Virus record (IMG/VR): IMGVR_UViG_3300045988_132551
Length of the DNA stretch: 47,600 nucleotides
DNA from: a virus
Reading direction: 5' to 3' (one strand)
A model generated the notes under the pieces. That model did no database searches and was not told the DNA's origin. It was given only the letters and a program-made list of their open reading frames with translations. Both the position numbers and the translations under genes were made by a program. Numbering within the stretch: the first letter of the stretch is position 1; each line of letters opens with the position of its first letter. This document shows, in pieces, positions 1-47,600 of this stretch.

Positions 1-99
1 AGCTCCTTTTATAGTTTTTATAAGAGATGTTGTTTTAGACGTGCAGCTGTGATATATTATAAGTATAAAAGACGTTCAGTCGTACTTAATTTTAGAAAG
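1..99. repeat. terminal direct repeat, copy 1 (identical to 47502..47600); circular-closure overlap of the contig
   Basis: The string agctccttttatagtttttataagagatg...ttttagaaag is read at both ends of the window. Confidence 0.95.
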
Positions 100-108
100 T
101 ATATTGCT

Positions 109-504
109 ATGGAACTTGATACTAATAATCATTCAGTGTTCATGCTTAATTATCATTTAATTATGTGTGTCAAATACAGGAATAATGTTATTGATGATGC
201 GATCTCATTACGGCTTAAAGAGATATTTAAAAACATATGCCTTAATTATAATATTTCGTTGGAAGAATGGAATCACGATAAAGACCATGTTCATGTACTG
301 TTCAGAGGACAGCCTAATAGTGAGATTTCTAAATTTATCAATGCTTATAAATCAGCAAGCAGTAGACTTATAAAAAAAGAATATCCAGAAATCAAGAAAC
401 ATTTATGGAAGGATATGTTCTGGTCACAAAGCTATTGTTTGATATCTACAGGTGGGGTGACCGTAGATATTATTAAGGAATATATTCAAACGCAAGGAAG
501 GTAA
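109..504 (+). CDS. tnpA: IS200/IS605 Y1 (HUH) transposase TnpA
   Basis: HUH motif in DHVHVLF, C-terminal SQSYCLISTGG (catalytic Tyr region), size about 130 aa. ORF 49..504 trimmed to the ATG at 109. Confidence 0.9.
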   Translation: MELDTNNHSVFMLNYHLIMCVKYRNNVIDDAISLRLKEIFKNICLNYNISLEEWNHDKDHVHVLFRGQPNSEISKFINAYKSASSRLIKKEYPEIKKHLWKDMFWSQSYCLISTGGVTVDIIKEYIQTQGR

Positions 505-509
505 AATAT

Positions 510-1661
510 ATGTCAAAAGCAAACAAAAGTAACAAGGCAATTAAATATAGACTCTATCCAAATGATGAACAAAAAGTCATGTTTGCAAAAACTTTTGGTT
601 GCTGTCGTTTTGTCTATAACCAATTACTTGCCCTGCAAAAACAAAGATACAAAGATGGAGAATCCCATCTTTCTAAGCTTAAATCAAATGAGTTCGCTAC
701 TCGTACATTAAAAAAAGATTATGATTTTCTCAAAGAAATAGATAAATTTGCTGTTTCAAATGCCGTTTTTCATTTAGCAGACGCCTATGACAGATTTTTT
801 AAAAAACAAAATCATTTTCCTAAATTCAAAAGCAAAAGAAAATCTAAAAAGTCGTATACAACAAATTTTACAAACAACAATATTCTTATTGGTAAAAATG
901 TCATAAAGCTTCCTAAAGTTGGAATGGTCAAAGCTGTTATTCATAAGTTGCCTAAAGATGATTGGAAGCTTAAATCTGTTACTGTCTCTCAAGATAGTGT
1001 CGGTAACTATTTTGCTTCCGTTCTTTTTGAATATGAACAGGAAGACATTCCATCTGTTTCCAAATCAAGTACAAATGCTATTGGACTTGACTATAAATCC
1101 GATGGACTTTATATGGACAGTAATGGGAATAAAGCAGGAGTTCATAAATACTATCGAGAAAGTCATAAGAAGCTTGCTAAAGAACAAAGAAGACTTTTAC
1201 GAAAAGCGGGTTCTAAAAAGAATGAAACAAAATCAAGCAACTGTTTTAAACAAATGAGAAAAGTAAACAGAATCTATAGAAAAATAGCGAATCAACGTCT
1301 CGACAGTCTTCATAAGAAATCTACTGAGATAGCCAATCAGTATGATATCGTATGTGTCGAAGACTTAGATATGAAAGCTATTGGAAATAAAGGTTTTGGC
1401 AATGGAAAAGCGACCTTTGACAACGGTTATGGAATGTTTCTTAATATGCTTGAGTACAAGCTTAAAGAAAGAGGTAAATATTTTGTAAAAGTTGACAAGT
1501 GGTACCCTTCTAGCCAAATCTGTCATTGCTGTGGAAGTGTAAAAAAACTCGACCTAAAAGACCGAGTTTATACATGTGATTGTGGTTATACTGGAGACAG
1601 AGACCATAATGCAGCAATCAATATACTTACAGAAGGATTGAGGATTCTTCAGTCCTTATAG
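510..1661 (+). CDS. tnpB: TnpB (IS605 OrfB-family RNA-guided nuclease)
   Basis: N-terminal KYRLYPNDEQ signature, RuvC-like VCVEDLDMK, zinc ribbon CHCCG..CDCG, C-terminal DRDHNAAINI. SD aaggaagg lies upstream. Confidence 0.9.
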   Translation: MSKANKSNKAIKYRLYPNDEQKVMFAKTFGCCRFVYNQLLALQKQRYKDGESHLSKLKSNEFATRTLKKDYDFLKEIDKFAVSNAVFHLADAYDRFFKKQNHFPKFKSKRKSKKSYTTNFTNNNILIGKNVIKLPKVGMVKAVIHKLPKDDWKLKSVTVSQDSVGNYFASVLFEYEQEDIPSVSKSSTNAIGLDYKSDGLYMDSNGNKAGVHKYYRESHKKLAKEQRRLLRKAGSKKNETKSSNCFKQMRKVNRIYRKIANQRLDSLHKKSTEIANQYDIVCVEDLDMKAIGNKGFGNGKATFDNGYGMFLNMLEYKLKERGKYFVKVDKWYPSSQICHCCGSVKKLDLKDRVYTCDCGYTGDRDHNAAINILTEGLRILQSL

Positions 1662-1831
1662 ATAAATTATAAAAGTAGGCTTGGGACGAGCCAAACTTAT
1701 ACGCTTGTGGACACTGTGTAAGACCTATAATGTATTGTCATTAGAGGCTGTAGTGGTTGAAGCAAGAAGCTCCGACTTCTAAACGAAGTGTAAGTCGGAG
1801 TAGTTCACATATTATATCGGACATGGTTATC
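1600..1831 (+). ncRNA. putative TnpB omega/right-end RNA (scaffold from the tnpB 3' end and RE, plus a 16-nt guide 1816-1831 outside the element)
   Basis: Placement follows the known architecture of TnpB systems. The structured RE (hairpin 1770-1800) is read in the sequence. The 5' end is not determinable by eye. Confidence 0.4.
1770..1800 (+). other. IS right-end subterminal hairpin
   Basis: ctccgactt / aagtcggag, a perfect 9 bp. Loop ctaaacgaagtgt. Confidence 0.8.
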
Positions 1832-2031
1832 GATATATTGCTAGAGATAAGGATGAATTATTATTTGCTTGTGATATAAAACCACGTAAAATACAAGATA
1901 GATGGGATGTAATCGAAAGGGTAAAAAAAATTAACTTTAATGATTTATTTTCATTTATTAAATGGGAAGATAAAGAACCCTATCCTATCACATATATCTT
2001 GGATAATTGTGAGGTAGATGAAAATGTGTAA
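1816..2031 (+). pseudogene. C-terminal fragment of the IS-interrupted paralog-family gene
   Basis: The frame reads IGHGYRYIARDKDELLFACDIKPRKIQDRWDVIERVKKINFNDLFSFIKWEDKEPYPITYILDNCEVDENV*. This matches the C-terminal domain of the paralogs (..YICRD.., ..WE..P..I.D.L.NCE.VE..). Confidence 0.75.
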
Positions 2032-2098
2032 GAGTCACTTGTCATGTAGATATGGAATAATGTTAGATTATAAAATTATTAAAGAAGGAGAGAGAAAG

Positions 2099-2587
2099 AT
2101 GAAATATGAATTAAAAAATCCAGGTAAAAGCTGGTGGGTTAAAGGAATGGTTGTTGAAGGAGAAATTGATGGAAGAACTAAAATTTTAGAAGTCGACAGT
2201 ATTGATATTTGTAGATTGAACAAAGACATTATGACTAAAGAACAAATCATTGAATGTATGAAATATCCTAAATGTGGGTTTGGCAAAGACTATTTAAAGG
2301 AAATAAAACCTACTTTTACAATGCTAGAAAAATTACTTCTAGAACATCAATTAGAAATGGGGTACAAATATATTACACGTGATGCAACAGAAAATAGATT
2401 GAATTTTTTCAAAAATAAACCTGTATTTAATGGGGGTGCATGGTTTGGTAAAAATGAAGTTTACTACCCTGTTTTCGATATGTACCTTAAAGAGTTATAT
2501 CCTTTTGTTTCTTATGAGAATGAAGAACCTACTTTAATTCAAGATATTTTAGATAGATATGAGGTGATTGAAAATGAAAAAATTTAA
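2099..2587 (+). CDS. hypothetical protein, paralog family member 2
   Basis: SD gaaggagag precedes the ATG at 2099. Similar to 2574..3065 and to the split gene. Confidence 0.75.
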   Translation: MKYELKNPGKSWWVKGMVVEGEIDGRTKILEVDSIDICRLNKDIMTKEQIIECMKYPKCGFGKDYLKEIKPTFTMLEKLLLEHQLEMGYKYITRDATENRLNFFKNKPVFNGGAWFGKNEVYYPVFDMYLKELYPFVSYENEEPTLIQDILDRYEVIENEKI

Positions 2588-3065
2588 GTTAAAAGTTCCT
2601 AGATACACTTTCGACCATAAAGGTATGATTATTAGAGGAAAACTTCGTGATTGTGAACATATGGTAGATGTGCACGCTGGAGATTTATGCGATGATAATA
2701 TGGATATTATGAGTAAAGAGAACATCAGACAATGTATGATAAAAGGAGATGATTTTACATGGAGATATGAATTAGACGAATTAGAGTTTTTAGAGCCGAT
2801 TAAACTGACTCGTTTAGATTATGAAATGCTCAAATTTGTTCAAAAACAAGGTGCAAAATATATATGTAGAGACCAGAGCGGTCTTTTAAATTTATATGAA
2901 GAAGAGCCTCGTATTATGGGAGATGAGCCTACATGGTGGGCAGGAGGTGAATATTCTTATTTAAGTACTTTTACAAAGCAATTATTCCAATTCGTGACTT
3001 GGGAAAGTCGAAAATATTATATTATTGAAGATGTTTTAGAAAATTGTGAAATCGTGGAGGATTGA
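2574..3065 (+). CDS. hypothetical protein, paralog family member 3
   Basis: SD gaggtg lies 7 nt before the ATG at 2574. C-terminus ..WESRKYYIIEDVLENCEIVED. Confidence 0.75.
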   Translation: MKKFKLKVPRYTFDHKGMIIRGKLRDCEHMVDVHAGDLCDDNMDIMSKENIRQCMIKGDDFTWRYELDELEFLEPIKLTRLDYEMLKFVQKQGAKYICRDQSGLLNLYEEEPRIMGDEPTWWAGGEYSYLSTFTKQLFQFVTWESRKYYIIEDVLENCEIVED

Positions 3066-3070
3066 CAGAA

Positions 3071-3472
3071 ATGAAATATAGAGTCAAAGGAACGAACATC
3101 ACTATTGCTCGTTATGATTATGATGAACATAATGTAAATATAATATTAGTGAGTCCCAAACACTTATTAATCCGTAACTATGAGAACTTAACTAGTAAAC
3201 AGAGAGTGTATTATAACTCCATGGTCTATATGGGTAACAAAGTACCTTTCTCTTTAGATGATTTAGAGCCTTATGAAGAAGTTTTAATCAGTCATAATGC
3301 CAAAGTGTGTATAGTCTATGTTTTGTCCATCATATTGATTATTTCAGCCTTTATGTGGGCAATGGATTTATGTTATAACGTTAACTTATTTCTACCGTTG
3401 TTTGTGACTATATTATTTACATTAATCGTTATCATTGCAACGTGTCTAGCACTATGCGAATTGGAATTATGA
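3071..3472 (+). CDS. membrane protein (two C-terminal TM helices)
   Basis: SD gtggagga lies upstream of the ATG at 3071. Hydrophobic C-terminal half. Confidence 0.65.
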   Translation: MKYRVKGTNITIARYDYDEHNVNIILVSPKHLLIRNYENLTSKQRVYYNSMVYMGNKVPFSLDDLEPYEEVLISHNAKVCIVYVLSIILIISAFMWAMDLCYNVNLFLPLFVTILFTLIVIIATCLALCELEL

Positions 3473-6473: not shown

Positions 6474-6498
6474 AAACAAAAAAAAAGGAGGAATGATT

Positions 6499-7590
6499 AT
6501 GAAAAATCAAAATGCGATAGGAGAAAAATACAACCATTGGACAGTTATTGATGTAGTGATGAATGAAAAAAGACATGAATATGAATGGATATGTATGTGC
6601 GATTGTGGAAATATAGTTCAACAAAGAACATACAATGTAAAGAGTGGAAAATCAAAACAATGTAGAGAATGTTCTAGTAAAAATAAAGTCTCAAAAAATC
6701 CCAAAAAATTAAAAAGGGAAAACACTAGTATTTCATATATAGGTAAGCAATATGGGGAATTGATAGTAGAGGACGATTATTATGATAAAAAATTGAAATG
6801 TAGGATTTTCAAATGTAAATGTAGTTGTGGACAAACTAGATTGGCTAAAAGATATAAAGTCCTAAACGGAGAAATAACTCATTGTACTTCTAAAATTCAT
6901 AGGCTATCAAATAATAATACTAAATATATAGGATATAAAAGTGGTGATTTGACAGTTAAATCTTTTGTATATGATGAAAATTTACAAATGATAAAGTGGG
7001 TGTGTGAATGTTCGTGTGGAAAAACTAGAGAGGTTATACCTTATTTTATCAAACATAATTTAGCAACCGCTTGTATAGAATGTACTAATGAAAAGATAAG
7101 ATTACAAAACAAAGAAAATAATAAAACTCACGGCTTATCAAATGAAAGATTGTATAAAACATGGAGTGGAATGAAAGCAAGATGCTACAATCCTAAAAAT
7201 GAAAGTTACAAAAATTATGGAGGTCGAGGTATAAGTATTTGCGAAGAATGGAAAAATGATTTTTTACCATTTTATAATTGGGCAATGGATAATGGCTATG
7301 AAGATTATCTTACTATAGATAGGATAAACAACGATGGAAATTATGAACCTAATAATTGTAGATGGGCAACATACAAACAACAAGCTAACAATAAAAGAAA
7401 TCCAACTCCAAAATTATATTTAACCATTGATGGAGTTAAAAAACCTATAATAGAATGGGCGAAAGAGTCTGAATTTACAACTCCTGCTATAATGTATCGT
7501 TTAAATACCAAACATATGAGCGGAAAAGAAGCCGTGTTTGGTGAAAGAAAAGCTTATCAAAATTATGTAAAATGGGGAGAAGATTTATAA
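6499..7590 (+). CDS. HNH_3-like / homing-endonuclease-like DNA-binding protein with three N-terminal Cys-rich modules
   Basis: C-terminus THGLS..LYKTWSGMKARCYNPKN.SYKNYGGRGISICEEW..F..W..DNGY...LTIDRINNDGNYEPNNCRWAT..QQANNKR, a recurrent phage motif. The N-terminus carries three repeats of the type W(I/V)C.C.CG....C.EC. Confidence 0.45.
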   Translation: MKNQNAIGEKYNHWTVIDVVMNEKRHEYEWICMCDCGNIVQQRTYNVKSGKSKQCRECSSKNKVSKNPKKLKRENTSISYIGKQYGELIVEDDYYDKKLKCRIFKCKCSCGQTRLAKRYKVLNGEITHCTSKIHRLSNNNTKYIGYKSGDLTVKSFVYDENLQMIKWVCECSCGKTREVIPYFIKHNLATACIECTNEKIRLQNKENNKTHGLSNERLYKTWSGMKARCYNPKNESYKNYGGRGISICEEWKNDFLPFYNWAMDNGYEDYLTIDRINNDGNYEPNNCRWATYKQQANNKRNPTPKLYLTIDGVKKPIIEWAKESEFTTPAIMYRLNTKHMSGKEAVFGERKAYQNYVKWGEDL

Positions 7591-8754: not shown

Positions 8755-8975
8755 GAATTATAAGTCAAGATGATAGGATTGATATTCCATACAGATTATG
8801 TTCTCTTGAAGAAGGAGAAAATGATGGAGGAACTTACACTATAGAAGCTGTTGTGTTTACATCAAGAATTTTTATGGGGAAATATGAAACAGAAGAACGT
8901 GCTAAAGAAATCATTCAAGAAATTAGAGAAAGATATAACATAGGTGCTAAATTCTATGTTATGCCTAAAGAATAA
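8751..8975 (+). CDS. hypothetical protein
   Basis: Translationally coupled ORF (ATGA overlap). Confidence 0.6.
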   Translation: MRIISQDDRIDIPYRLCSLEEGENDGGTYTIEAVVFTSRIFMGKYETEERAKEIIQEIRERYNIGAKFYVMPKE

Positions 8976-10651
8976 TGAACCAAAATGAAGAAAGTATAGC
9001 TATTCTTTTATCTCAATTAAAAGAAACAATGCCTTATTTCATGCGTATGGAGAAACTCAATCTTTTACGTGATTTATCTAAAAAAGAAAATAAGACTGAT
9101 GTTTTGAGAGCGACTTGCAGAGGGCAGATTAAACTTATAAATGCTCATATGAAAGATTTAAAAGATGATGAAAAACTCAAAGCCTACAATTTTTTACGTG
9201 ACGCACATACGGACAATGGGAGATACGATTTAGAGTCGTATCTTATTGCTATGGAGTGGGATAGAAAACCAGAGAAAAGATTTTATCAACCTCGTATGAA
9301 AGTCCTCCATCCTGTCATGAAGGATTTACAGGATTTAGGGGACGGGGTCATTGACATATATTTATTGTCCATGCCACCAAGAATAGGTAAAAGTACTATT
9401 GGTTTATTCTTTATGTCGTGGTTGGCAGGGCGTTATCCAAATGAACATATCTTTGGAGCTGGTTATGCTAGTGGATTGGTAAATACCTTTTGTAAAGGGG
9501 TATTGGATTTCATAGACAGTGAAGAATATCGTTTTTATGAGATATTTCCAGAAGCTAGAGGTAAATTGACTACCTCCGCTAAAGATATGACAATCGACAT
9601 ATGGGAGAATGAGCGTTATAAGACACTTACGTTCCGTTCGATTGATGGGCAGATTACAGGTGCGTTAGAGGCTGAAAGTCTGTTGTATCTAGATGATATG
9701 TGCTCTGGTATTGAAGAAGCTATGAATATTGACCGACTAGAAAAGCTATGGTCAAAAGTAACTGTTGATTTAATGCAAAGACGTGTCATGAATAAAAGAA
9801 CAGGACGATTAGCACCTATTCTAGGTATCGGCACTATATGGTCAGTACATGACCCAATTTCTAGATTGGAAAGAAAATATGGCAAGACAAAGAGATTTCG
9901 CTCTCGTAAGATGCCAGCTTTGAATTTAGATGGTAAAAGTAACTTTGACTATGACTATAATGTAGGATATACAACATCTATGTATCAAGAATTGAAAAGC
10001 AATATGGATGAAGTATCATGGGAATGTGTATATCAACAAAACCCTATGGAACGTGATGGTTTATTATTCCCTGGTAGTGAATTGAAAAGATACTTGTCAT
10101 TACCTAACAAAAAACCAGATGCTATTATTGCTCATTGTGACGTCGCCTTTGGTGGTGACGATTTCATCAACTTCCCTGTGGGGTATATTTATGGTGAGGA
10201 TTGCTATGTCGTAGATACAGTATTTAGATGTAAAGCTGACTATAAAGTAACTGAACCTATGGTTGCAGGTAAGATAGTACAACATGAAGTACAGATGGCT
10301 CACTTTGAAGCAGATAGAGGTGGGGATTTCTATGCACGTGATGTAGACGATATGGTGAAAAAAGGTAGCAAACACAGGTGCAACATTACATGGAGTTCTG
10401 CAGGTACTAAACAAAGCAAGTTGGTACGTATCATTCAGTATGCACCAGATATTAAGCGAATGTACTTCAAAGACCCATCATTGTATAAGCCAACGGACGA
10501 TTATGGTAGAATGATGTCCAATGTCACGACATTTGTTCAAACAGGCTCATCATTGCATGATGATGGTCCAGATGGTTTAGCTGGTTTAGCCAAATTATTC
10601 AAGCAACCTATGATAGGAGCTGTAAGTTCTCCATTTAAAAGACCATTTTAG
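8975..10651 (+). CDS. terL: terminase large subunit
   Basis: Walker A PPRIGKST, Walker B LLYLDD, C-terminal nuclease-like acidic motifs (HCDVAFGGDD, LHDDGPD). 558 aa, upstream of the portal gene. Confidence 0.85.
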   Translation: MNQNEESIAILLSQLKETMPYFMRMEKLNLLRDLSKKENKTDVLRATCRGQIKLINAHMKDLKDDEKLKAYNFLRDAHTDNGRYDLESYLIAMEWDRKPEKRFYQPRMKVLHPVMKDLQDLGDGVIDIYLLSMPPRIGKSTIGLFFMSWLAGRYPNEHIFGAGYASGLVNTFCKGVLDFIDSEEYRFYEIFPEARGKLTTSAKDMTIDIWENERYKTLTFRSIDGQITGALEAESLLYLDDMCSGIEEAMNIDRLEKLWSKVTVDLMQRRVMNKRTGRLAPILGIGTIWSVHDPISRLERKYGKTKRFRSRKMPALNLDGKSNFDYDYNVGYTTSMYQELKSNMDEVSWECVYQQNPMERDGLLFPGSELKRYLSLPNKKPDAIIAHCDVAFGGDDFINFPVGYIYGEDCYVVDTVFRCKADYKVTEPMVAGKIVQHEVQMAHFEADRGGDFYARDVDDMVKKGSKHRCNITWSSAGTKQSKLVRIIQYAPDIKRMYFKDPSLYKPTDDYGRMMSNVTTFVQTGSSLHDDGPDGLAGLAKLFKQPMIGAVSSPFKRPF

Positions 10652-33225: not shown

Positions 33226-34335
33226 CTATTTTTTCTTTCTCAATGTTAATGTTTCTTTTGTTGATTTAATTTCATACTTGTCTAATACTCCGTCAAGTTC
33301 CATTGCTTCAACATCATAAGAAACAACTTCTTTAACTGTTTTAGATAATGTATAGTTACCTAAAACTGCTTTTGTATCGTTATCTCCCATTTGTGAAGAC
33401 AACTGTTCTTTGATACCCTTTTCACAAGCTTCTAATTGTTTTTCTAAATCCGCTAAACCTGTTTCTTTTTTAATGGTATCTATTTTAGCGATAAGTTCAT
33501 TAGCTTTAGCAACCAAATCGTTATCGTCTAAATCATTTTGAGGTTTTGAAGTTCTTAAAATATCTAAATATTCTTTGTCCTTCACTTCATCAAATACAGG
33601 ACTGAAACCTGTCTTGATATGTTCATCATACCACTTATTGGCTAATTCAATCAAGCCTTTAATGTTATAATGGTTTTTAGGAATTTTATCCCCTTTTTCT
33701 AAAACAACGATTTCCCCATCTGTAATGTCAATATAAGTTTTATTCACATCATATGTGAATATTTGTGTATTCGTATCATCTACTACAAAGTTTTGAGGAT
33801 TGTTATAATCGTTATCCTCTAAGAAAGAAACAATTAAATGAACCCTTTTAGCACCTTCCAAATAAGCATATTCTAATGCTTGACATAAGTAATAAACAGG
33901 CGGATGGTCTACCCAATCCTCTGCACGTTTGGTAGTCTTGTATTCAAAAATATCTGATACCTTACCGCTAGGACGAACAAGTTTACTATCCCACATACCA
34001 CCATAGATTTTTTCATTAGGATAGAAGTCATATTTGACCTCACTATATCTGTTACCGAAAAATTCTTCTGGTGATAATACGTTTTCACTAATTTGTTCTT
34101 TACTCCATTTAATTTGTTTTGGTTCAATAGCTTTACCAGCTAAAGTATAAATCGTATCTTCAAATGGAGGTCTAGCACATTTAGTAATTTCACACCACAT
34201 TTGAAATGGAGTGCTCCATTTATTCAATCCTAAAATTCCTGCTAGACGAGTACCTGTAACTTTTAATTTACTTCTTGGTTCTCCATCTACTAAAATAATT
34301 CTTTTCCCATCTTCACTGTATTTCCAATCTAACAT
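33226..34335 (-). CDS. YqaJ/lambda-exonuclease-like recombination exonuclease
   Basis: TGTRLAGILGLNKWSTPFQMWCEI is the YqaJ N-terminal signature. ATG 34335 has SD GAGAGGAG. The ORF-track start 34407 overlaps the upstream gene. Confidence 0.65.
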   Translation of the reverse strand: MLDWKYSEDGKRIILVDGEPRSKLKVTGTRLAGILGLNKWSTPFQMWCEITKCARPPFEDTIYTLAGKAIEPKQIKWSKEQISENVLSPEEFFGNRYSEVKYDFYPNEKIYGGMWDSKLVRPSGKVSDIFEYKTTKRAEDWVDHPPVYYLCQALEYAYLEGAKRVHLIVSFLEDNDYNNPQNFVVDDTNTQIFTYDVNKTYIDITDGEIVVLEKGDKIPKNHYNIKGLIELANKWYDEHIKTGFSPVFDEVKDKEYLDILRTSKPQNDLDDNDLVAKANELIAKIDTIKKETGLADLEKQLEACEKGIKEQLSSQMGDNDTKAVLGNYTLSKTVKEVVSYDVEAMELDGVLDKYEIKSTKETLTLRKKK

Positions 34336-34399
34336 TTTTATTCTCCTCTCATTGGTTGACTTACAAATAATCTTCTCATAATCATTTGAGAGTTGGGGT

Positions 34400-35167
34400 T
34401 TATTCAACCCCTAACTCGTCCGCCTTTTCTTCAATCTTTGTCATCATAGAAACTGCTTTTGTTTTAGTTAAAGCCATTTCGCCTTTTTTGAATTTTTCAA
34501 GGTTAGTTAAAGTTTTTTCGCCATATCCTGGTTTCTTTTCTTGACATTTCTTAATCAAGTCAATCATTTCATCTACATAAGCCATTGTCGGTTGGTCGTT
34601 GTTTACGACTTCTTGTTTAGCTTCTTCTCTTTCTTCTTTAGTTGGAGGAGGTGTAGGTTTAGATTTTTTAGGTTCATCCTTTGTTACATTTAAAGGTTTT
34701 TCTTCCGCTTTTCTATCTTCTTTAGCTGACTCTGGGTCGATTTCATCTTGTGTTTCTGGTAACAAGAAGTTATTTAACACAAAGTATTTGATAGCCATTG
34801 TTTCAGCTTTATAAATACCTTTATCTAAATTATCACTGCCTTCTGCAATAATTGGATAGTCTTCAAACTCACCTGTATCTGGGTCAATTAAACTCATATT
34901 TCCTTGAATAGTAATCAAGTTCATATTTTTAGTTTTTTCAAGAGGTGTGAATAATCTATTTACAATAGATAATTTGTAAATCAATCCAACTTCTCTACAT
35001 CCTTGTCCTAATACTTTACGATAGTAAGATGACTTGATGTATTCATATCCTTGTGCATCATTGTACCCATCTGTAATGTAAGGTTGTTTTGCTAAATATA
35101 GACCTAAATCAAAAATCTTTTTGTATAGAGCTGGTCTTGGCTCTAATTTTGTTTTAGCTACTGCCAT
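34400..35167 (-). CDS. ERF-like single-strand annealing protein (possible independent product from an internal ATG)
   Basis: Internal AAAGGAG-N10-ATG (MAVAKTK..) lies just downstream of the A8 run at 35193-35200. Confidence 0.45.
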   Translation of the reverse strand: MAVAKTKLEPRPALYKKIFDLGLYLAKQPYITDGYNDAQGYEYIKSSYYRKVLGQGCREVGLIYKLSIVNRLFTPLEKTKNMNLITIQGNMSLIDPDTGEFEDYPIIAEGSDNLDKGIYKAETMAIKYFVLNNFLLPETQDEIDPESAKEDRKAEEKPLNVTKDEPKKSKPTPPPTKEEREEAKQEVVNNDQPTMAYVDEMIDLIKKCQEKKPGYGEKTLTNLEKFKKGEMALTKTKAVSMMTKIEEKADELGVE

Positions 35168-37108
35168 TTTCTTTTTCTCCTTTGTTTTCTTATTTTTTTT
35201 AATGCCTAGAAAATCATTTATTCTTTTCTTTGCAAGATTAATATACCACTCTTTATCAATAGTGTCAATAGTAATTTTACAAGAATTGTCTATAAGTGCA
35301 TGTTGAGGACAATTTTGGATTGTGTCTTTTCTCATAAAGAAATCTCCCTTTTCGTCCGTTTCCCATACTCTCTTATAAGTTTTCTCTCCTTTTTGATTGA
35401 TATAATACCTTGCCCATTTTTCCTCAAAGTCTACTTCTTGAACCAATTCTTTGTCCAAATATGTTTTCTTTACTTTTTTAACTGTACCTAGAGTTTTATC
35501 TTTGACTGCATAGATACGATTTACCCTTTGTACTTCTATTTCTTCACCGTTTACATAATGAACTGTCTTATCGTAACTGCCTCCTGTTTTTCCAATCAAT
35601 TGAAATTGGAAAGGGTCATCACAAGCATTGATAGTATCTTCTACAGGTACATCATTGATAAAATAGTCAATGATAGCCTTTGCTACAATAGAAAATGAGT
35701 TATGCTTGAATGATGGTTTATAATCGCTCACATAAGCACCTTTTACTTTCAATGAACCATCTTCTTTTTCAAGGATATAATTATTCACATCTTTAATAAT
35801 ATAACGCTTGATACCTTCAACTTCCAACTCTAGACGTGTTCTCTTTTGCCATTCATCCATTACCGCATTGGCTATATCCATTTCGCTTTCATGAATAATA
35901 AAAGCGACACCATCTGTATTTACATTAGTAAGTCTAATTGTCTTACATTGTTTACATAACTCAATGCATAAGTCCGTCAATAGTAACTGTCCTGTCGCAC
36001 ATACTGAACGACCATTACGTGGGTCGTAGCAATCACTAAACTGTTGTAAGGAAATACCATAAACTGTATTGATAGGTACTTTAAGAGAATTTGCTACTCT
36101 CTTGTCACCTCTATGTTTAGCGTCAATACGTTCTTTCTTCATGTTGAAGAATTTGTTAGGGTCTGGTACTGCACGGCTCGTAAGTCCATATTCTTCCATC
36201 AATGATGGATATAGGGAAGTTACATCTGCAATCTTTTGAACATGTCCATCTTTGTTTACAATGATTTCATTTTGAACACTCGCATGAACACCTCCCCATG
36301 CGAATACCCATTCCAAACCTAAAAAATCAATTTTAAGTTTCTTATTGAAAAGTACCTCCGTAGGGATATTTTCATCAAAAGCTTGGTTAAAGAAGTCCTG
36401 CACTTCTTCAGGGATATTATTCCAATTTACAGTATCTGGAAACTGAATATCTCTTTCATCATTAAACTCACATCTTTCAGCACCTAAAGAGATACTCGCT
36501 AACTGCCCATTTGTTCGATATAAAGACTCTTCTGGTGTTAAACCTTCTCTCGTACCATTGAATACTTTAGCTTCTAGATAGTCCATTCTTTCGTCAATTA
36601 AACATGATGTAGCATCAACATCATGATGACAATAGAATAACATTTCGTCAAATTCTTCTTTAGTCCACGGATGGTCTATTTTGAAATCTACAGTTGACTC
36701 TTGAATGTCCATGAGCATATTACCTTCAAGTTCCTTTAAAGATTGTCTTAAAGGCATATCCAACATGAGATCACTGGTAGGTGGTATTTTGATATACGGT
36801 TGGTCGAATGGATATGTCCATCCATCTTGATGTTCTTCGATAATATAATCGTTAATATCCTTGATATAATCTGGTGTATAATGATTTAAAACACCTTTAA
36901 GGATATAATTATCATAATGTTTATTATTATATCCTACATAGATAAAATCATGCTTATTGATAAAATCCTCAACACCCTGTGGGTCATTGTGAAAATCATA
37001 AAATATACCCGTCTGTCTATCTTTGATGCATAGAAGCCAATCGTAAGCTGTAACTTCAAAGTCAAAAGCTACTAATCTACTTTTCCACCCATCATCTTGT
37101 TTTCCCAT
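34400..37108 (-). CDS. family-B DNA polymerase (3'-5' exo + pol) fused in frame to an ERF-like single-strand annealing domain
   Basis: Exo motifs FDFEVT, YNNKHYDNYIL, HHDVDAT. Pol motifs DVTSLYPS, KVPINTVYG, NVNTDGV. The C-terminal 256 aa have an ERF-like ..DKGIYKAETMAIKYFVLNNF. Confidence 0.75.
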   Translation of the reverse strand: MGKQDDGWKSRLVAFDFEVTAYDWLLCIKDRQTGIFYDFHNDPQGVEDFINKHDFIYVGYNNKHYDNYILKGVLNHYTPDYIKDINDYIIEEHQDGWTYPFDQPYIKIPPTSDLMLDMPLRQSLKELEGNMLMDIQESTVDFKIDHPWTKEEFDEMLFYCHHDVDATSCLIDERMDYLEAKVFNGTREGLTPEESLYRTNGQLASISLGAERCEFNDERDIQFPDTVNWNNIPEEVQDFFNQAFDENIPTEVLFNKKLKIDFLGLEWVFAWGGVHASVQNEIIVNKDGHVQKIADVTSLYPSLMEEYGLTSRAVPDPNKFFNMKKERIDAKHRGDKRVANSLKVPINTVYGISLQQFSDCYDPRNGRSVCATGQLLLTDLCIELCKQCKTIRLTNVNTDGVAFIIHESEMDIANAVMDEWQKRTRLELEVEGIKRYIIKDVNNYILEKEDGSLKVKGAYVSDYKPSFKHNSFSIVAKAIIDYFINDVPVEDTINACDDPFQFQLIGKTGGSYDKTVHYVNGEEIEVQRVNRIYAVKDKTLGTVKKVKKTYLDKELVQEVDFEEKWARYYINQKGEKTYKRVWETDEKGDFFMRKDTIQNCPQHALIDNSCKITIDTIDKEWYINLAKKRINDFLGIKKNKKTKEKKKMAVAKTKLEPRPALYKKIFDLGLYLAKQPYITDGYNDAQGYEYIKSSYYRKVLGQGCREVGLIYKLSIVNRLFTPLEKTKNMNLITIQGNMSLIDPDTGEFEDYPIIAEGSDNLDKGIYKAETMAIKYFVLNNFLLPETQDEIDPESAKEDRKAEEKPLNVTKDEPKKSKPTPPPTKEEREEAKQEVVNNDQPTMAYVDEMIDLIKKCQEKKPGYGEKTLTNLEKFKKGEMALTKTKAVSMMTKIEEKADELGVE

Positions 37109-46698: not shown

Positions 46699-46727
46699 TT
46701 GACATACCTAGACTATGGGTGTACAAT
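46699..46727 (+). promoter_or_regulatory. sigma70-type promoter TTGACA-N17-TACAAT (plus strand, divergent from the early promoter)
   Basis: Read directly. TG lies 1 nt upstream of the -10. Confidence 0.6.
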
Positions 46728-46755
46728 AAGGGTGTCAAATGAAGGAGGGATGAAA

Positions 46756-46983
46756 ATGAAAAAAAAAAAACAATTGGGCGACTATCTATATGAACTAGCA
46801 TTTCAAAAAAGAAATAGAAAGATATGGCATGTTTTTGACAACAACCATAACTTGATAGCAAGTGGTAATCCACTTGTTTTATGGATGGCATTAGGAGAAA
46901 TGTTCTCAAATAAACCTATTAAAAAAGTTTTAGATAATGGGAGAACAATAATTTTGGATTGTGAGGTGAAATTCAATGTTTAA
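46756..46983 (+). CDS. hypothetical protein with an A12 run directly after the start codon
   Basis: SD gaaggagg lies 7 nt before the ATG at 46756. MKKKKQLGDYLYELAF.. Confidence 0.6.
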   Translation: MKKKKQLGDYLYELAFQKRNRKIWHVFDNNHNLIASGNPLVLWMALGEMFSNKPIKKVLDNGRTIILDCEVKFNV

Positions 46984-47077
46984 TGCTGACGTAGGTTTAA
47001 TTTTATGTACACCGTTAATTATCTGGGGTGTAGCAATGTTGATGTATGATTTTTTAGGAGGTAATAAAGATGAATAG
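46976..47077 (+). CDS. small membrane protein (33 aa)
   Basis: SD gtgaggtga. MFNADVGLILCTPLIIWGVAMLMYDFLGGNKDE. Overlaps the next start. Confidence 0.4.
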   Translation: MFNADVGLILCTPLIIWGVAMLMYDFLGGNKDE

Positions 47078-47456
47078 TGATAAATTTGACGCTTTATTAT
47101 CTACACTCCCTAATTTACAAAATTTAGATTTTCATTTAACTAAAGTACCAAATGATAAAATTAATAGAAAAGAGGAAAAAGAAATGGAACGAACATTTAG
47201 ATTAAGAAAGAAAAATTTTAGTTTTGAGAAGAAAGGAATGATTTTGAAAGGTGAAGTATCTGACGATAATCAATATATTTTTGTGAGAGCATGGGATATA
47301 TATTTAAACAATAAAGACATCATGAGTGATGATGAAGTAGAATTTTGTTTGTCATATGGTATTAATCATAAATGGATGTATTTGATAAGCGAATTGGAGT
47401 CTTTAAATCCTATAATTCATTTATCAAAACTAGAATATGAATTGTTGAACAAAAAT
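47070..47456 (+). pseudogene. N-terminal fragment of a paralog-family gene interrupted by the IS
   Basis: ORF 47070..47480 aligns with the N-terminal two thirds of 2099..2587 and 2574..3065 up to ..LSKLEYELLNKN, then runs into IS sequence and stops. Confidence 0.75.
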
Positions 47457-47467
47457 AGGAGCGCAAT

Positions 47468-47498
47468 CCCCTTCCTCTAAGCGAAGCGTAGGGAGGGG
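47468..47498 (+). other. IS left-end subterminal hairpin
   Basis: ccccttcc / gggagggg, 8 bp with one G-T pair. The loop tctaagcgaagcgta resembles the right-end loop. Confidence 0.7.
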
Positions 47499-47501
47499 TC
47501 T

Positions 47502-47600
47502 AGCTCCTTTTATAGTTTTTATAAGAGATGTTGTTTTAGACGTGCAGCTGTGATATATTATAAGTATAAAAGACGTTCAGTCGTACTTAATTTTAGAAAG
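47502..47600. repeat. terminal direct repeat, copy 2 (identical to 1..99)
   Basis: Exact 99-nt match to the window start. Confidence 0.95.

Follow-up and report, generated by a model that had tools for sequence, protein, structure and literature searches.

A probable intact IS605-group element with tnpA, tnpB and a predicted ωRNA, inserted 3' of TTGAA in a gene of a human-gut phage

Introduction

Insertion sequences (IS) of the IS200/IS605 family move by a strand-specific, peel-and-paste transposition of single-stranded DNA (ssDNA) (PMC8612924). In ISDra2 of Deinococcus radiodurans, the guide of the RNA-guided nuclease TnpB consists of 16 nucleotides (nt) of the right flank (PMC8612924), and TnpB is reported to process its own mRNA into omega-RNA (ωRNA) (PMC10278001). 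The idea that such elements home into, or act against, competitors has been framed as "transposon non-restorative homing," and TnpB-dependent spread in a plasmid population has been reported (PMC13565253). Here we describe an element of this family in the virus record IMGVR_UViG_3300045988_132551 of IMG/VR, analyzed as one stretch of 47,600 nt (the window).

A first-pass annotation of the window had read the locus as an IS200/IS605 element that encodes a Y1/HUH TnpA, a TnpB and an ωRNA spanning its right end (RE), and that lies inside a phage gene and across the contig junction; this general reading holds. The first 99 nt of the window are identical to its last 99 nt (47502 to 47600 repeat 1 to 99, with 47502 equivalent to 1). 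The assembly is therefore closed into a circle of 47,501 nt, which represents a circular or terminally redundant phage genome. A feature that runs over position 1 can readily escape notice. The best explanation of the locus is, with high probability, an intact and recently acquired IS605-group element of 1,860 bp that lies 3' of TTGAA, interrupts a phage gene and would work by the mechanism of its family.

Results

The ends of the element were located by comparing independent copies with empty sites. Copies with 98 to 99% identity occur in MT839778.1 (L001), a Mexican gut-virome scaffold, and in five further IMG/VR contigs (L002/L015, L003/L013, L004/L011, L012, and L014, the last having a right flank that matches that of L004/L011). 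Copies are also present in Faecalibacillus intestinalis SNUG30099 and in two metagenome-assembled genomes (MAGs) labelled Mollicutes and Acholeplasmataceae, with TnpB 99% identical (L025 to L027). The element is evidently recently active, because copies with 98 to 99% identity are spread over F. intestinalis, the two related MAGs and several viral contigs. On the left side, the copies read TTGAA followed directly by CAAAAATAGGAGC at seven independent sites, with no conservation further left, and on the right side all of them diverge directly after GTAGTTCAC (in the longer reading, GGAGTAGTTCAC). These copies alone cannot divide the shared 12-mer TTGAACAAAAAT into target and element, and it is the empty sites that decide. 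In related and near-identical phages, GAATTGTTGAA runs directly into ATATTATATCGGACATGG, and the orthologous genes of three IMG/VR phages (L016 to L018) are uninterrupted, with GAATTGTTGAA followed by ATATT. The homology of IS-free contigs to the window ends at 47449 and restarts at the RE junction, at 1809, and the reconstructed empty site of the window phage reads GAATTGTTGAAATATTATATCGGACATGG. The whole 12-mer was ruled out as element sequence, since the empty sites keep TTGAA; they read TTGAA/ATATT, showing no target-site duplication.

The independent copies and the empty sites together fix the element at 47450 to 47501 and 1 to 1808. TTGAA, the insertion target and putative transposon-associated motif (TAM), occupies 47445 to 47449 (+ strand) in the flank, outside the element; it stands to the left of the element in seven of the seven independent contexts. 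The first part of the left end (LE), 47450 to 47501 (+), starts with CAAAAATAGGAGCGCAAT and holds the LE hairpin. It continues at 1 to 108 (+) as a noncoding leader upstream of tnpA, which is conserved in all IS copies and presumably contains the tnpA promoter; a promoter scan did not confirm a tnpA promoter in this leader. At the other end, TTCAC at 1804 to 1808 (+), the last 5 nt of the element, forms the putative right cleavage site and is the invariant RE end in 29 relatives.

These ends differ from those of the first-pass annotation, which were both displaced by 7 nt in the same direction, so that the left boundary fell inside the element and the right boundary fell in the flank. The annotation had taken the left flank to end at 47456 in CAAAAAT, and had read this motif as the TAM, with a right flank beginning ATCGGAC. 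CAAAAAT is in fact the first 7 nt of the element, is found in every IS copy and is lacking from the empty sites, which rules out that pair of ends. The comparison with related IS copies, which it had itself proposed as a check, speaks against its termini, and related phages lacking the insertion supplied the exact ends and the TTGAA target. Its boundaries likewise keep the reading frame of the phage gene, and this frame-keeping shift of 7 nt probably explains the error.

Two features of the L001 copy stand apart. An inverted TTGAACAAAAAT about 40 nt to the right of its RE adjoins no IS sequence, and was taken as chance or as unrelated coding sequence. In the region from 1180 to 3160, L001 shares with L004/L011 the left IS flank, which contains a small open reading frame (ORF) with a hydrophobic N terminus, while the right flanks differ; the right flank of L004 continues the left-flank ORF, unlike that of L001, which looks like a recombinant or a chimeric assembly across IS copies.

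Removal of the element by joining 47449 to 1809 yields an ORF of 200 amino acids (aa). Its 5' part lies at 47070 to 47449 (+) and comprises codons 1 to 126 plus 2 nt, and its 3' part, including the stop codon, lies at 1809 to 2031 (+). The restored ORF can be aligned with two downstream paralogues (2099 to 2587 and 2568 to 3065), with no gap where its two parts meet, as well as with the intact orthologues in L016 and L017. All three tandem genes (47070 to 3065) belong to phrog_22292, which has no assigned function. In L059, a near-identical contig without the IS, nothing matches the window from approximately 2120 to 3035, and the number of paralogues seems to vary between sister phages.

This two-sided precision bears on a possible assembly artefact, in which a host element would have been joined into the phage contig by the metagenome assembler through repeats. 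The element is a multicopy repeat in the same microbial community, and L001, with the left flank of L004/L011 and another right flank, resembles a chimera or a recombination across IS copies. In the window, however, both junctions lie at the same nucleotide of the same phage gene, exactly 3' of TTGAA, and removal of the element restores both the frame and the empty-site sequence of sister phages. Because a chimeric join would not produce such a precise two-sided insertion, an artefact is highly improbable.

The element carries tnpA and tnpB in tandem on the + strand, as first described. The product of tnpA (109 to 504) is a Y1/HUH transposase of 131 aa with the motif H60-V-H62 and the tyrosine Y125, matching Pfam Y1_Tnp (1.5e-43) and, above the cutoff of the model, NCBIfam transpos_IS200 (1.1e-41). 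It aligns with the TnpA of ISHp608 (2a6m) at an E value of 2e-23, with the HUH motif and the tyrosine conserved. The product of tnpB (510 to 1661), a predicted RNA-guided nuclease of 383 aa, matches Pfam HTH_OrfB_IS605, OrfB_IS605 and Cas12f1-like_TNB and NCBIfam guided_TnpB (5e-88), and aligns with ISDra2 TnpB (8h1j/8exa) over residues 8 to 377 at an E value of 2e-59. Residues D194, E284 and D363-R-D365 align with D191, E278 and the DRD motif of ISDra2, and a zinc finger is present (C338-x-x-C341 ... C356-x-C358). TnpB is thus apparently catalytically intact, and inactivating RuvC substitutions, which the first-pass annotation had named as a possible refutation, are not present at the aligned catalytic positions D194, E284 and D363/D365. 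Comparison with the TAM-contacting residues of ISDra2 TnpB (PMC10097598) shows that the residues aligned with the contacts to the TT of the TAM (K76, F77, T123 and N124) are conserved, and that those aligned with the contacts to TAM positions −1/−2 (Y52 and Q80) differ. The latter differences would fit a TTGAA instead of a TTGAT TAM.

A decayed or domesticated TnpB, with the nuclease inactive or repurposed (for instance, as a regulator) and the conserved RNA serving another role, is improbable in view of these features. Domesticated derivatives exist, according to bioRxiv 10.1101/2023.11.30.569447, but here neither the RuvC D/E/D residues nor the zinc finger is disrupted, tnpA and both transposon ends are intact, and the near-identical copies at many sites indicate that the element is mobile.

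Both ends carry a subterminal hairpin on the same strand, and the element has no terminal inverted repeats, its ends CAAAAAT... and ...GTTCAC not being inverted repeats of each other. The LE imperfect hairpin at 47468 to 47498 (+) and the RE hairpin at 1770 to 1800 (+) were located exactly by the first-pass annotation, which had also noted the core shared by their loops. Direct reading, ssDNA folding and alignment of the LE with the RE show in both a stem of nine positions, an internal loop and a C-GAA-G tip, with the loop cores CTAAGCGAAGCGTA on the left and CTAAACGAAGTGTA on the right. The outer stem of the LE hairpin is AGGAGC/GCTCCT. The ssDNA fold is stronger for the RE segment (z = −3.5, with 0 of 200 shuffles as good) than for the LE segment (z = −2.1, with 8 of 200 as good), and the distance from hairpin to cleavage site is 18 nt on the left and 8 nt on the right. 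The RE hairpin is the predicted binding site of TnpA in ssDNA and coincides with stem 4 of the predicted ωRNA. The LE tip (47481 to 47487) forms a GCGAAGC mini-hairpin, the classic, very stable DNA mini-hairpin sequence, and the RE tip (1783 to 1789) is the variant ACGAAGT; L037, L039 and L050 retain a similar CGAAG/CAAAG tip in the RE. Pairing of the cleavage motifs TTGAA and TTCAC with bases 5' of the hairpins, by analogy with IS608, gave a clean fit at the last position only (A-T on the left and C-G on the right).

The ωRNA was predicted from the last 160 nt of the RE in the window and in 28 relatives, which show 53 to 60% TnpB identity where the full protein is present. RNAalifold finds six helices with 26 pairs in these 29 sequences, of which four helices lie upstream of the RE hairpin and all pairs but one form in the window sequence. 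The predicted scaffold spans approximately 1674 to 1808 (+; ~135 nt), with stem 1 at 1675 to 1680/1690 to 1696, stem 2 at 1704 to 1708/1762 to 1766, stem 3 at 1712 to 1717/1750 to 1755 and 1724 to 1727/1744 to 1747, and stem 4 at the RE hairpin, which shows compensatory changes in the relatives (helix 6). Paired cells amount to 96.5%, against 84% in shuffles and 34 to 58% in controls with slid partners. Half of the pairs (13 of 26) show compensatory change, and the covariation score was reached by none of 500 shuffles. Frequent G-U pairs in the helices tie the structure to the + strand, which argues for an RNA rather than only the ssDNA hairpin of TnpA. A candidate pseudoknot of four pairs connects the loop of stem 1 (1684 to 1687, +) with the last bases before the flank (1803 to 1806, +). 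It is pairable in 29 of 29 sequences, with changes on one side only that keep the pairing and an almost invariant 3' partner, and is thus compatible with a pseudoknot, short of proof. Together with the guide, an RNA of ~150 nt from roughly 1674 to 1824 is predicted. In Rfam, the 5' half of the ωRNA (1662 to 1741, +) has a subthreshold match (E = 9.2; 18.8 bits, where the gathering score is 37) with HPnc0580, an sRNA of Helicobacter pylori, which is probably chance.

With the start of the right flank given by the empty sites and the guide rule of ISDra2, the putative guide is ATATTATATCGGACAT, the 16 nt with which the right flank begins, at 1809 to 1824 (+). The guide first proposed, at 1816 to 1831, is thus 7 nt out of place. 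The exact sequence TTGTTGAA joined to ATATTATATCGGACAT, that is, TTGAA plus target, occurs in three IS-free metagenome contigs (L057 to L059); a search of IMG/VR for this exact empty site gave no match. The flanks of these contigs are 95 to 100% identical to the window in the compared parts, and two of the three measure 45,047 and 45,925 nt, against 45,641 nt expected for the phage minus the element. The first-pass proposal that TnpB would cut the uninterrupted allele of the phage gene is therefore borne out as to the target, which is perfect in IS-free sisters, while the cutting itself is a prediction. A scan of the window for TAM plus guide returned the occupied RE junction as the only near match, with two mismatches, both in the TAM, and no other site within three mismatches. 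At the occupied site the guide-matching flank is preceded by TTCAC, not TTGAA, and as the RE terminus differs from the TAM, this site is predicted to be protected from its own TnpB. The orthologous sites of L016 to L018 have three mismatches each to the 16-nt guide, of which two or three lie within the 12 TAM-proximal nt.

The circle has a G+C content of 32% and, judged by its gene content, is a complete tailed-phage genome (siphovirus type, gut), with genes for the terminase large subunit, portal, major head protein, tape measure, endolysin, tail fibre, helicase and primase. An ORF at 34400 to 37108 (−) encodes a family-A-type DNA polymerase, the C-terminal part of which (residues 680 to 882) matches Erf-like ssDNA-annealing proteins, and adjoins a RecE-like exonuclease gene (33226 to 34407, −). 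From this Erf-like part and its RecE-like neighbour, the phage is predicted to carry its own recombination module. A megablast with the structural module returned no similar phage in the GenBank phage set, and related genomes are present in IMG/VR and in gut metagenomes. The phage is a low-G+C gut Firmicute phage from the human gut, and the TnpB identity of 99% in F. intestinalis and the Mollicutes- and Acholeplasmataceae-labelled MAGs hints at Faecalibacillus or a close Erysipelotrichales relative as its host.

Two further features of the genome were noted. The large terminase gene (8975 to 10651) is preceded, at a distance of ~1.4 kb, by an HNH endonuclease gene at 6493 to 7590 (+; phrog_374, 1.5e-79), whose product may be either an HNH protein associated with packaging or a free-standing homing endonuclease. 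A homopolymer of 11 A residues directly follows an ATG at 46756 (46756 to 46769), which is in frame and internal near the start of a TTG-initiated ORF (46699 to 46983); the run is a possible hotspot of slippage or sequencing error.

Discussion

By the family mechanism, TnpA would bind both subterminal hairpins on the + (top) strand as ssDNA. Its cuts would fall after TTGAA at the left end and after TTCAC at the right end, and the element would move by peel-and-paste, leaving the target unduplicated. Once bound to the ~150-nt RNA, with ATATTATATCGGACAT as guide, TnpB would cut any DNA carrying TTGAA plus this target, be it the empty site left after excision or that of an IS-free co-infecting phage, while the occupied site, with TTCAC in place of the TAM, would be spared. 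Repair from an IS-bearing copy would then reinstate or spread the element, a step that the RecE-like and Erf-like proteins of the phage could perform. In this scheme, the expression of the RNA and the activity of TnpB are predicted, and its specificity for the TAM and any drive effect are inferred.

On these grounds homing into co-infecting phages is plausible. The stronger proposal of an RNA-guided homing drive, in which TnpB-ωRNA cuts IS-free sisters, after which either the RecE/Erf-like proteins copy in the element or the cleaved genome is lost, is tentative and rather doubtful. If true, either outcome would give the IS-bearing phage a competitive edge, and the locus would represent natural "non-restorative" TnpB homing in a virus.

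Several observations weigh against this functional reading. IS-bearing copies of this phage number one against three IS-free copies, with no sign of spread in the phage population. By the mismatch rule for TnpB guides (PMC10097598), the sites of L016 to L018 would probably escape cutting, and their mismatches would therefore limit any effect to close kin. The Rfam scan of positions 1 to 3000 at E ≤ 10 matched no family and returned only subthreshold snoRNA and sRNA noise, and the promoter scan found no convincing sigma-70-like promoter for the ωRNA, although TnpB reportedly makes ωRNA from its own mRNA (PMC10278001). The role of TTGAA as TAM of this TnpB is deduced solely from the transposon target motif.

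The element may instead be a passive passenger, a genuine IS605 that left the host chromosome for the phage in the course of an infection, is neutral or slightly harmful, has no homing or competitive role and will be lost. We consider this a serious possibility, if somewhat short of probable. In its favour, IS-free versions of the phage prevail over the IS-bearing one by three to one; the 99% identical copies in bacteria suggest that the element came from a cell; and the insertion was probably tolerated, the interrupted gene having two tandem paralogues that vary in number between phages. Against it, all parts required for TnpB-guided cutting are intact, the exact target is present in sister phages, the phage encodes its own recombination proteins, and TnpB-dependent spread has the plasmid precedent (PMC13565253).

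As an annotation, the element is routine, an unremarkable member of a well-known family. IS200/IS605 elements with TnpB rank with the commonest mobile elements, and TnpA and TnpB families from phage genomes are already part of PHROGs. Its value lies in providing a clean natural test case, with the ends, the putative TAM and the guide placed to the nucleotide, the IS-free target allele known and recombination genes in the phage itself. TnpB homing or interference between co-infecting phages, for which the case has so far been made chiefly by analogy and from work on plasmids, thereby becomes directly testable; a search of the accessible literature turned up no experiment on it in phages. A further contribution is a TnpB/ωRNA pair with a predicted TTGAA TAM from a human-gut Firmicute phage.

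Compared with known systems, the Y1/HUH TnpA, the subterminal hairpins and the insertion 3' of a fixed motif without duplication place the element in the IS605 group of IS200/IS605, and the RuvC D-E-D residues with the zinc finger, the predicted structured ωRNA at the RE and the occupied site without a TAM match place it among the TnpB/OMEGA systems. With ISDra2 it shares gene order and orientation, the Y1/HUH TnpA, the catalytic residues of TnpB and a 5-nt target/TAM only one base apart (TTGAT in ISDra2). The predicted ωRNA likewise has a length of ~150 nt including the guide, and the same order of stem 1, pseudoknot partner, stem 2, stem 3, stem 4, pseudoknot and guide. It differs from ISDra2 in the last base of the TAM (T in ISDra2, A here) and at the residues aligned with Y52 and Q80. 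The scaffold overlaps the 3' end of tnpB in ISDra2, whereas here it lies almost wholly downstream of the tnpB stop (1661). In addition, tnpA and tnpB do not overlap, and the carrier is a low-G+C gut Firmicute phage, unlike in ISDra2. IS608 (ISHp608) of H. pylori provides the closest solved TnpA (2a6m) and also has subterminal imperfect hairpins and insertion 3' of a short motif without duplication, but its target is the 4-nt TTAC (PMC8612924) in place of a 5-nt motif.

The nearest relatives beyond the near-identical copies, with 53 to 60% TnpB identity, come from Lachnospiraceae, Erysipelotrichaceae, other gut and rumen Firmicutes and IMG/VR contigs (L005 to L010 and L028 to L056). They share the RE terminus GTAGTTCAC, the ωRNA architecture and the gene order, and differ in the sequences of their hairpins. 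In several of them (L005 to L007, L029, L033 and L035; ~56 to 60% TnpB identity), TTTAA stands, by position only, where TTGAA stands here, ~17 nt before the LE hairpin and with left ends ~560 nt upstream of tnpB (TTTTAA in L028), which suggests that these sister elements use a different TAM. In its proposed effect, finally, the element is reminiscent of phage homing endonucleases, in which a nuclease carried on one phage allele cuts the allele without it in a co-infecting genome and repair copies the element in; recognition there is by protein, whereas here it would be by an RNA guide together with a TAM.

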